Assembly: GCF_003334385.1 (NCBI RefSeq)
Contig: NZ_QOWN01000005.1
DNA: 64,000 bases
Reading direction: 5' to 3' (one strand)
DNA from: Escherichia coli
Lineage (GTDB): Bacteria; Pseudomonadota; Gammaproteobacteria; Enterobacterales; Enterobacteriaceae
Shown here piece after piece: positions 7,530 to 64,000 of this stretch (position 1 is the first letter of the stretch; every line of letters starts with the position of its first letter). The notes beneath the pieces were generated by a model. The model was not told the DNA's origin. It made no database searches and saw nothing but the letters and a program-made list of their open reading frames with translations. The translations under genes were made by a program, and so were the position numbers.

Positions 7530-7650
<121 letters not shown>

Positions 7651-41393: not shown

Positions 41394-42818
41394 TTACTGC
41401 ATTAACAGGTAGATGGTGCTGTCGCCGCGCTGAATGTTGAGTGCCAGCACAGACGGTTTGCTGTCGAGAACTTTACGCAGTTCAGCGATATTTTTCACTG
41501 CCTGCTGGTTCGCGCCAATAATCACATCACCTTTCTTCAGGCCGATCTGCGCAGCCGGAGTGCCCGTTTTCACGTTGTTCACTACCACGCCCTGATCTTT
41601 GCCTTTGTTGCTCATCTCAGCGCCTTCAATGCCGTTGAAGATGGAGCTGGAATCAACCTGATTCTGGCTGCTCTGCTGCAGTTCCAGGTTCACGTTAACC
41701 TGCTTACCGTCGCGCAGTAAGCCCAGGGTCAGTTTGCTGCCTACCGGCATAGTACCCACCTGAGCACGCAGTGCGGCAAAGCTGCTGATCGGCTTACCGT
41801 TCAGTGAGGTGATCACATCACCCGCTTTAATGCCCGCTTTTGCAGCGGAGGAATTAGGCAGAACCTGGCTTACGAAAGCACCGCGCTGGGCGTCAACTTT
41901 CATCGCTTTCGCCAGTTCGGAGTTCAGCTCAGTCCCCATAATACCCAGCTCACCGCGTTTCACCTGGCCGTATTCCACCATCTGCGAGGTCAGGTTTTTC
42001 ACCATGTTACTCGGGATAGCAAAACCGATACCGATGTTGCCGCCGTCCGGTGCGAGGATCGCGGTGTTGATACCGATCAGTTCGCCGTTCAGGTTAACCA
42101 GCGCACCACCGGAGTTACCACGGTTGATCGCTGCATCGGTCTGGATGAAGTTTTCGTAGTTTTCGGCATTCAGGCCGCTACGCCCCAGCGCAGAGACAAT
42201 CCCGGAAGTTACCGTCTCGCCCAGACCAAACGGGTTACCAATCGCTACGGTGTAATCACCCACGCGCAGTGCATCAGAATCCGCCATCTTAATTGCGGTC
42301 AGGTTTTTCGGGTTCTGGATTTGGATCAGCGCGATATCAGAGCGCGGATCTTTGCCAACCATCTTCGCGTCGAACTTACGGCCATCGCTCAGTTGAACTT
42401 TAATGACCGTCGCGTTATCAACAACGTGGTTGTTGGTGACGACATAGCCTTTATCGGCATCAATGATGACGCCGGAACCCAGCGCCATGAATTTCTGTTG
42501 CTGGCCGCCACCATTACCGCCCTGGCCACCCTGGCAGAACGGAGAGCTCTGGAACGGAGAACCTTCCTGGCAGAACGGAGAATCATCACCGAAGAACTGC
42601 TGGAAATTACGCGGCATACGCGGCGTATTAACGGTTGTGCTACCTTCTACGTTAATGCTGACCACTGAAGGCATCACCTTTTCGAGCATCGGTGCAAGGC
42701 TTGGCATCTGCTGGGCTGTCGTTGCTGAAGAAGTCTCAGCCGCCGTTGCAGAGAGCGGAGATAACGCCAAACCTAAACTCAGAGCCAGTGCACTCAGTGC
42801 TAATGTGGTTTTTTTCAT
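41394..42818 (-). CDS. degP: periplasmic serine endoprotease / chaperone DegP (HtrA)
   Basis: 474-aa ORF with signal peptide, trypsin-like domain (GNSGGAL) and two PDZ regions; recognised as DegP. ATG verified. Confidence 0.97.
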   Translation of the reverse strand: MKKTTLALSALALSLGLALSPLSATAAETSSATTAQQMPSLAPMLEKVMPSVVSINVEGSTTVNTPRMPRNFQQFFGDDSPFCQEGSPFQSSPFCQGGQGGNGGGQQQKFMALGSGVIIDADKGYVVTNNHVVDNATVIKVQLSDGRKFDAKMVGKDPRSDIALIQIQNPKNLTAIKMADSDALRVGDYTVAIGNPFGLGETVTSGIVSALGRSGLNAENYENFIQTDAAINRGNSGGALVNLNGELIGINTAILAPDGGNIGIGFAIPSNMVKNLTSQMVEYGQVKRGELGIMGTELNSELAKAMKVDAQRGAFVSQVLPNSSAAKAGIKAGDVITSLNGKPISSFAALRAQVGTMPVGSKLTLGLLRDGKQVNVNLELQQSSQNQVDSSSIFNGIEGAEMSNKGKDQGVVVNNVKTGTPAAQIGLKKGDVIIGANQQAVKNIAELRKVLDSKPSVLALNIQRGDSTIYLLMQ

Positions 42819-42863
42819 GTATTTCAGTCTCGATTAACAGATAACGCAAAATTGCTGTGTTCT

Positions 42864-61670: not shown

Positions 61671-62920
<1,250 letters not shown>

Positions 62921-63097
62921 TAAAGTAAGTAACTGGTTAATTTACATTCTGGTCGCGTGCGCAAATACGCTTTTCCTCACACAGTTGTCAAGTGTTACGT
63001 TTAGATAATTGCTATCCGGAAAAGCATCTGCTATTTATAGCGGCCTCATTTTTCCCCCGAACATGGGGATCGATAGTGCGTGTTAAGGAGAAGCAAC

Positions 63098-63553
63098 ATG
63101 CAAGAAGGGCAAAACCGTAAAACATCGTCCCTGAGTATTCTCGCCATCGCTGGGGTGGAACCATATCAGGAGAAGCCGGGCGAAGAGTATATGAATGAAG
63201 CCCAGCTGGCGCACTTCCGTCGTATTCTGGAAGCATGGCGTAATCAACTCAGGGATGAAGTCGATCGCACCGTTACACATATGCAGGATGAAGCAGCCAA
63301 CTTCCCGGACCCGGTAGACCGTGCAGCCCAGGAAGAAGAGTTCAGCCTCGAACTGCGTAACCGCGATCGCGAGCGTAAGCTGATCAAAAAGATCGAGAAG
63401 ACGCTGAAAAAAGTGGAAGACGAAGATTTCGGCTACTGCGAATCCTGCGGTGTTGAAATTGGTATTCGCCGTCTGGAAGCGCGCCCGACAGCCGATCTGT
63501 GCATCGACTGCAAAACGCTGGCTGAAATTCGCGAAAAACAGATGGCTGGCTAA
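63098..63553 (+). CDS. dksA: RNA polymerase-binding transcription factor DksA
   Basis: Recognised as DksA (151 aa from [41 protein letters not shown]4 zinc finger [26 protein letters not shown]). ATG at 63098 is preceded by AAGGAG. Confidence 0.96.
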
Positions 63554-63581
63554 TTACAGCCGTTCCATCACGTTTACCACA

Positions 63582-63609
63582 GGCGGGAAATGCTCCCGCC
63601 TTATTTTTT
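63582..63609 (+). terminator. intrinsic terminator after dksA
   Basis: Hairpin GGCGGGA-AATGC-TCCCGCC followed by TTATTTTTT. Confidence 0.75.
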
Positions 63610-63619
63610 GTTCAAAGAG

Positions 63620-64000
63620 ATGACAGACACACAGTATATTGGCCGCTTCGCCCCCTCTCCTTCCGGCGAGCTTCATTTTGGCTCTCTGATCGCCGCGCTC
63701 GGCAGCTATTTGCAGGCTCGCGCCCGGCAAGGTCGCTGGCTGGTACGCATAGAAGATATCGACCCGCCTCGTGAAGTTCCCGGTGCCGCAGAAACTATCC
63801 TGCGCCAGCTGGAACATTACGGTCTGCACTGGGACGGCGATGTTCTCTGGCAATCGCAACGTCACGACGCCTATCGTGAAGCACTCGCCTGGTTACATGA
63901 ACAAGGACTAAGTTATTACTGCACCTGTACGCGTGCGCGTATTCAAAGCATTGGCGGTATTTACGACGGTCATTGCCGGGTGTTGCATCATGGACCAGAC
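63620..64000 (+). CDS. gluQ: glutamyl-Q tRNA(Asp) synthetase, 5' partial (runs off the window end)
   Basis: Translation from the ATG at 63620 gives [52 protein letters not shown], the class-I aaRS-like N-terminus of GluQ/YadB. Absent from the ORF track because no stop falls inside the window. Confidence 0.9.

Follow-up and report, generated by a model that had tools for sequence, protein, structure and literature searches.

Operon-internal partial terminators are known in Escherichia coli from rpsU-dnaG-rpoD, where a terminator precedes dnaG with its poor Shine-Dalgarno sequence, and from recA-recX, with a read-through of about 10%. In both cases co-transcribed genes are separated by an intrinsic terminator; the gene behind it lacks a separate promoter, has a weak ribosome-binding site and is expressed at a small fraction of the level of the gene before it. 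A terminator hairpin directly upstream of a queuosine-pathway gene, as at gluQ, is also present in the preQ1 riboswitches of queuosine genes. The closest described system is the dksA-gluQ-rs terminator of Shigella flexneri, which Caballero et al. compared with rpsU-dnaG-rpoD and recA-recX (2012, BMC Microbiol 12:226, PMC3542578). A dksA-gluQ-rs transcript was found by RT-PCR, which demonstrated co-transcription of the two genes. Expression was further assessed with lacZ fusions: (i) a fusion running from dksA codons through the first five codons of gluQ, without the dksA promoters, had baseline activity; (ii) a fusion with the dksA promoters and the spacer was 10-fold below a fusion ending at the dksA stop codon; and (iii) mutations that disrupt the stem raised the reporter activity more than 2-fold (PMC3542578). 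The first of two in-frame AUGs was found to sit in the loop of the hairpin. The reporter experiments and the N-terminal sequencing of GluQ-RS were performed with multicopy plasmids and in a strain different from that of the window.

The window, that is, the whole stretch of 64,000 nucleotides of E. coli DNA analysed here, contains the same element, as it occurs in a sister lineage of S. flexneri. Matching via the published description revealed no substantive difference: the gene pair, the AUG in the loop, a second AUG 27 nt on, the missing Shine-Dalgarno sequence and the N-terminal peptide are those of S. flexneri, and both the peptide of 12 residues encoded from 63620 and the loop ATG at 63590 agree with the description of Caballero et al. 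(PMC3542578). The terminator is thus already known, as the first-pass annotation of the window had stated; the mechanistic experiments are those in S. flexneri, and in E. coli the support comes from transcriptome maps. Operon-internal terminators are a known class, of which this one is a clean example. It differs from those of rpsU-dnaG-rpoD and recA-recX in its genes and sequences, in a start codon that is unusually near (10 nt past the U-run) and in the complete lack of a Shine-Dalgarno sequence. Our analysis modestly extends the Shigella paper with a hairpin in 74/74 species, a gluQ start without Shine-Dalgarno sequence in 71/74 and a problem in the annotation of the gluQ start of K-12.

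The dksA-gluQ locus and its terminator hairpin

Many E. coli chromosomes match the stretch 63000-64000 at 100% identity, and it was found in 5425 of 5426 complete genomes; the 101 nt round the terminator are identical in K-12 MG1655, BL21 and O157:H7. According to the RefSeq annotation of a 100%-identical E. coli chromosome, the gene order on the + strand is thpR, sfsA, dksA, gluQRS, pcnB, folK. DksA scored 346 bits against its NCBIfam model (NF008045, curated cut-off 289), and the best matches of the 126 GluQ residues that lie within the window were the NCBIfam GluQRS models. The features of the locus are collected in Table 1.

Table 1. Features of the dksA-gluQ locus, with positions in the window.
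Feature	Position	Strand	Basis
dksA CDS, 151 aa, TAA stop codon at 63551-63553	63098..63553	+	ORF list (ATG at 63098), RefSeq annotation of identical chromosome, NCBIfam NF008045
Terminator stem-loop, arms AGGCGGGA / UCCCGCCU, 8 bp (6 G-C), loop AAUGC	63581..63601	+	Sequence reading, terminator scan, folding
In-frame ATG in hairpin loop, start of gluQ in K-12 reference (308 aa), most likely unused	63590..63592	+	NC_000913.3
U-rich terminator tail UAUUUUUUGU	63602..63611	+	Sequence reading, scan; first 8 nt 7/8 T
RNA 3' end of K-12 (genome 160097, minus strand), 4 nt past the stem and inside the U-run	63605	+	Term-seq tables, PMC7815308
gluQ (gluQRS, yadB) CDS from experimentally supported ATG, truncated by window end	63620..64000	+	PGAP (298 aa), NCBIfam GluQRS models

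The first-pass annotation had placed a hairpin plus T-tract at 63582-63609 and the gluQ ATG at 63620. Direct reading of the sequence, a consensus terminator scan and folding showed these coordinates to be right within 1 nt; the scan picked this hairpin too, counting 8 pairs (6 G-C) and a 5-nt loop. The 5' arm AGGCGGGA (63581-63588) and the 3' arm UCCCGCCU (63594-63601) enclose the loop (63589-63593), and the stem, which starts 27 nt after the dksA stop codon, is followed immediately by the U-tract UAUUUUUU (63602-63609, 7/8 U), in which a run of six U ends at 63609. The gap between T-tract and start codon, estimated at about 10 nt, is exactly 10 nt (63610-63619), and the ATG (63620-63622) is 18 nt past the stem. 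The geometry agrees with the earlier remark that the ribosome-binding region adjoins the terminator, except that there is no Shine-Dalgarno sequence whatever. In read-through transcripts the U-rich tail UAUUUUUUGU doubles as the leader right before the gluQ start. A G+C-rich stem, a short loop, a U-tract and a published in vivo 3' end inside the U-tract are all present, as in an intrinsic terminator.

The stability of the hairpin was assessed by folding. The isolated hairpin folds at −14.5 kcal/mol, and the 72-nt span delimited in the first-pass annotation at −18.5 kcal/mol (z = −2.73, with 1 of 200 shuffles equally stable). The hairpin was retained in folds of 173 nt and 106 nt, in which it was the sole stable element in both the minimum free energy (MFE) and the centroid structures; no competing antiterminator or alternative pairing was seen in these two folds. 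A second hairpin (63602..63622, + strand), in which the U-run of the read-through RNA pairs with AAGAGAUG and thereby with the start codon, is predicted by MFE and centroid folding, yet it amounts to −2.1 kcal/mol alone, its sequence is unconserved in other genera and it is probably not meaningful. Rfam gave no match at the dksA-gluQ site, neither in a scan of the whole window at the gathering threshold nor in a permissive scan of 62900-64000 (E ≤ 5); the lone permissive match was a snoRNA inside dksA, which we attribute to chance. The locus is therefore unlike the preQ1 riboswitch and attenuator leaders: it has no aptamer, no Rfam match and no antiterminator fold, and a sensor domain would not fit into the 27 nt that separate the dksA stop codon from the stem.

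In vivo 3' ends and read-through

Published Term-seq tables of E. coli K-12 (Adams et al. 2021, PMC7815308) established an RNA 3' end in the U-run. Its conversion from genome coordinate 160097 to the window was verified by matching the published 61-mer. The end was represented by 3.1 million reads in LB at OD 0.4, far above the ∼10^3–10^5 typical of the Term-seq rows inspected, and by 254,767 reads under another condition. Rho-independence was supported in the same work by comparison with bicyclomycin treatment (Rho score 1.16; 'No' significant Rho region), and the intrinsic-terminator score was 7.47. DirectRNA-seq coverage at this position was 250 upstream versus 62 downstream (PMC7815308). 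Term-seq is unable to separate termination from processing, a limitation given by the authors themselves, and a 3' end only 4 nt past the stem implies exonuclease trimming after termination.

According to K-12 RNA-seq, ligT-sfsA-dksA-yadB-pcnB-folK form an operon whose internal promoter and terminator together give rise to a dksA-specific transcription unit (Conway et al. 2014, PMC4161252). No yadB promoter is listed in this operon map; pcnB-folK also has its own promoter. The first-pass annotation had concluded that gluQ expression depends on read-through of the dksA terminator, and this fits both the S. flexneri fusions and RT-PCR (PMC3542578) and the K-12 3' end (PMC7815308). Read-through can be estimated at about 10% from the reporter data and at about 25% at most from the coverage. 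Mutation of the stem raised expression little over 2-fold and removal of the spacer 10-fold, so something besides the stem may limit expression. In stationary phase the intergenic RT-PCR product of S. flexneri increased 20-fold and the dksA and gluQ amplicons 1.3-fold (PMC3542578); the end-point RT-PCR behind the 20-fold figure is only semi-quantitative. A constitutive terminator does not explain this rise.

Start codon of gluQ

In the K-12 reference NC_000913.3, gluQ (b0144) is annotated at 159186..160112 with the ATG in the hairpin loop as its start, whereas PGAP calls the 298-aa form from 63620, 30 nt downstream of the loop ATG. When GluQ-RS was expressed from the native spacer of S. flexneri, N-terminal sequencing demonstrated a peptide of 11 residues that follows the second ATG (PMC3542578). 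The loop ATG is preceded by the Shine-Dalgarno-like AGGCGGG, for which the anti-Shine-Dalgarno duplex was calculated at −6.3 kcal/mol, and both are sequestered in the −14.5 kcal/mol stem. In the divergent E. coli AF16 the loop is AAUUA and the loop ATG is absent, with stem and U-run otherwise identical; of the 24 further species that share this stem only E. albertii has it, and the 23 that lack it include all of the other genera. The start of the 308-aa form in the K-12 reference is probably an annotation error. Because this start lies in the loop, the Term-seq atlas files the dksA terminator under 'internal' for gluQ, at a distance of 15 nt from the annotated start.

The start at 63620 lacks a Shine-Dalgarno sequence according to the anti-Shine-Dalgarno duplex calculation, as was also remarked for the true gluQ start by Caballero et al. 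(PMC3542578). An open reading frame of 57 aa (63450-63623, + strand), which lies inside dksA and whose TGA overlaps the gluQ ATG (ATGA), was considered for translational coupling. Within the spacer this frame offers no ATG, GTG or TTG as a start; the overlap was therefore judged to be chance.

Comparison across species

Loci of 80 species from Enterobacterales, Vibrionales and Shewanella were fetched with DksA as the probe. GluQ is encoded directly downstream of dksA in 74 of them, with a median spacer of 70 nt. Every one of these 74 spacers contains a hairpin of −11.7 kcal/mol or stronger (median −18.75), and folding of the whole spacer gave a median z of −3.57, with z < −2 in 64/74. The U-run is far more variable: of the 8 nt that follow the hairpin, 5 or more are U in 23/74 and at most 3 in 39/74 species, and in the latter the hairpin is not a canonical intrinsic terminator. 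These U-run numbers are taken from the full-hairpin analysis; analysis of the 'core helix' mishandles hairpins with internal loops. For the species without a U-run, the candidate roles of the hairpin are that of a weak terminator, that of an RNA 3' cap or one in translation.

The hairpin ends at most 25 nt before the inferred gluQ start in 55/74 species, and the linker between the two is 40% U (T) and 13.5% G. Upstream of gluQ the anti-Shine-Dalgarno duplex had a median of +0.45 kcal/mol and reached −4.5 in only 3/74, leaving 71 without a Shine-Dalgarno sequence. For dksA the median was −7.4 kcal/mol, and 72/74 reached −6. Start codons had to be inferred where the protein alignment began past residue 1, so the statistics on distance and Shine-Dalgarno sequence carry some noise, chiefly for the distant loci.

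Within Enterobacteriaceae, the GGCGGG/CCCGCC core of the stem is invariant in 25 genomes (the window and 24 other species), and loop, tail and flanks vary. Covariation was confined to the three outer stem pairs, with a score of 0.129 versus 0.082 for shuffled alignments; none of 500 shuffles scored as high, a figure that is not to be read as a probability. The core of the stem, being invariant, is uninformative for covariation. Unrelated stems occupy the same place in Pantoea/Erwinia, Photorhabdus/Xenorhabdus, Yersinia, Vibrio/Photobacterium and Shewanella.

A strong spacer hairpin (−15 to −28 kcal/mol) that is not followed by a U-run was seen in many Enterobacterales other than Escherichia, among loci L023-L070 of the collection. 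Examples are Photorhabdus (L039-L042), Pantoea and Erwinia (L031, L033 and L050) and Yersinia (L036, L043 and L044).

Proposed mechanism and alternative explanations

We consider it highly probable that 63581-63611 is a constitutive, partial Rho-independent terminator, that gluQ mRNA arises solely by read-through under the conditions studied and that GluQ is kept low. The terminator would be internal to a longer operon, thpR-sfsA-dksA-gluQ-pcnB-folK. Of the transcripts that start at the dksA promoters or further upstream, most would stop in the U-run, yielding an abundant, hairpin-capped monocistronic dksA mRNA, and ∼10–25% of the transcripts would read through and carry gluQ, and then pcnB-folK. 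Since gluQ has no promoter of its own, these transcripts would be the only gluQ mRNA under the conditions studied. Translation of gluQ would start on the read-through RNA at ATG 63620, without a Shine-Dalgarno sequence and behind a U-rich, G-poor leader, and the level of GluQ would be low and track the activity of the dksA promoters. We infer that the S. flexneri results carry over to the E. coli sequence. Initiation without a Shine-Dalgarno sequence presumably relies on the U-rich leader, for instance via ribosomal protein S1, and the low output of GluQ may well be a selected outcome.

Four other explanations were weighed against a constitutive terminator with read-through. Read-through could be under the control of a ligand, a protein or a small RNA, and gluQ would then be induced by stationary phase or stress independently of dksA. 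The 20-fold rise of the intergenic RT-PCR product points in this direction, and such regulation was raised as a possibility by Caballero et al. (PMC3542578); the invariance of the six core stem pairs in the 25 Enterobacteriaceae genomes, with diverging flanks, is also consistent with it. However, invariant G-C stems are expected from purifying selection alone, the parts at which a specific ligand or protein should bind, namely the loop and the flanks, are free to vary, other families have unrelated stems, and the RT-PCR was semi-quantitative. A riboswitch or attenuator is recognized by a sensor domain or a mutually exclusive antiterminator; Rfam gave no match at E ≤ 5 and the longer folds showed no antiterminator pairing, so neither is seen here, and we regard a regulated attenuator as unlikely. 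Somewhat less likely still is that the hairpin serves mainly RNA stability; transcription would then continue into gluQ, and the 3' end at 63605 would be a processing product left after trimming by a 3'-to-5' exonuclease or RNase E. That end is nearer to the stem than the usual release point, Term-seq cannot discriminate termination from processing (PMC7815308), and the U-run is poor in 39/74 species though the hairpin is conserved. Against this, E. coli has a textbook U-run (7/8 U) and an intrinsic score of 7.47, and both the stem mutations and the deletion of the spacer raised a downstream lacZ transcriptional fusion, as expected for termination and not for stabilization of the upstream RNA. 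The two roles are compatible, and stability may come as an added role, especially in species without U-runs.

An own promoter of gluQ that overlaps the terminator, for example one for sigma-E, perhaps giving a leaderless mRNA that starts near the ATG, is very improbable. A sigma-24 site is predicted for E. coli gluQ in RegulonDB, as cited in PMC3542578, a leaderless mRNA would account for a start without Shine-Dalgarno sequence, and GGAAATG (63586-63592) and TCAAA (63612-63616) resemble the −35 and −10 elements of sigma-E. The 19 nt between these elements are outside the 15–18 nt that were scanned, however, and the TCAAA and loop sequences are unconserved in other genera; this look-alike was rejected, and no sigma-E site with at least 9/12 matches and a 15–18-nt spacer was found near gluQ. 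Consensus scans, which cannot prove absence, gave no promoter in the 10-nt gap between the terminator and the ATG. The sole sigma-70-like match (63611-63640) was dismissed, as it would initiate transcription past the ATG and such matches are no commoner than in shuffled sequence. In S. flexneri the promoterless fusion that spans the whole region stayed at baseline, and a separate promoter was thereby excluded (PMC3542578), in line with the lack of a yadB promoter in the K-12 map (PMC4161252). The first-pass claim that there is no room for a promoter stands for the 10-nt gap alone; it went too far for a promoter overlapping the terminator, which the reporter data exclude solely under the conditions tested. 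Hardly credible, finally, is a start of gluQ at the loop ATG 63590, which would place the terminator inside the coding sequence. It has the NC_000913.3 annotation, the 'internal' label in Term-seq and the AGGCGGG duplex in its favour, but the N-terminal peptide follows the second ATG (PMC3542578), the ATG and the AGGCGGG are buried in the stem, PGAP calls the shorter form and the loop ATG is absent in AF16 and in nearly all other species with the same stem (23/24).

With the constitutive terminator as the preferred reading, the terminator would tie the level of the enzyme that glutamylates queuosine in tRNA(Asp) to the promoters of DksA, the stringent-response factor, and would keep that level low. 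It is a tidy case of graded expression within an operon. The mechanism published for Shigella fits the E. coli sequence, and independent Term-seq and RNA-seq data from K-12 agree with it. Conservation over the 74 species extends to the hairpin and the start without Shine-Dalgarno sequence, also in those with a degenerate U-run. In about half of the species the hairpin has outlasted the U-run, and it might thus serve the translation of gluQ as a second conserved role. The conserved module would then consist of a stable hairpin, a U-rich and G-poor linker and, usually within 25 nt, a gluQ start without Shine-Dalgarno sequence; the hairpin might, for example, position an S1-dependent or standby site for the 30S subunit or bind a factor. 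We put this forward tentatively and give it a rather small chance. If it holds, the output of GluQ would be set by translation as well as by read-through.

Other features in the window

Upstream of dksA, the sfsA-dksA spacer contains a hairpin CTGCTATTTATAGCGG followed by CCTCATTTTT (63028-63053, + strand), located in the dksA leader/promoter region. An 'orphan' 3' end in the K-12 Term-seq data (160652, minus strand) maps to window position 63050, at this hairpin. The hairpin may terminate sfsA or attenuate transcripts that arrive from upstream of dksA. Another K-12 Term-seq 3' end, of low abundance, falls within the dksA coding sequence at 63315 (+ strand; genome 160387), with ∼29,000 reads, an intrinsic score of 1.04 and a Rho score of 0.89; it is likely a processing product. 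A 5-bp hairpin, GGCTG...CAGCC, lies over the dksA stop codon (63544-63561, both strands) and is terminator-like on the minus strand, with the tail ATCTGTTTTT. It is probably chance: no convergent gene ends there, and 4 terminator-like sites were found versus 2.6 in shuffled sequence.

Elsewhere in the window, four Rfam matches scored above the gathering threshold: naRNA4 (7568-7644), CssrA (32908-33017), t44 (33856-33942) and the HtrA 5' UTR thermometer (42813-42858), all on the minus strand. These are known RNA elements of E. coli/Shigella, unrelated to the dksA-gluQ terminator.
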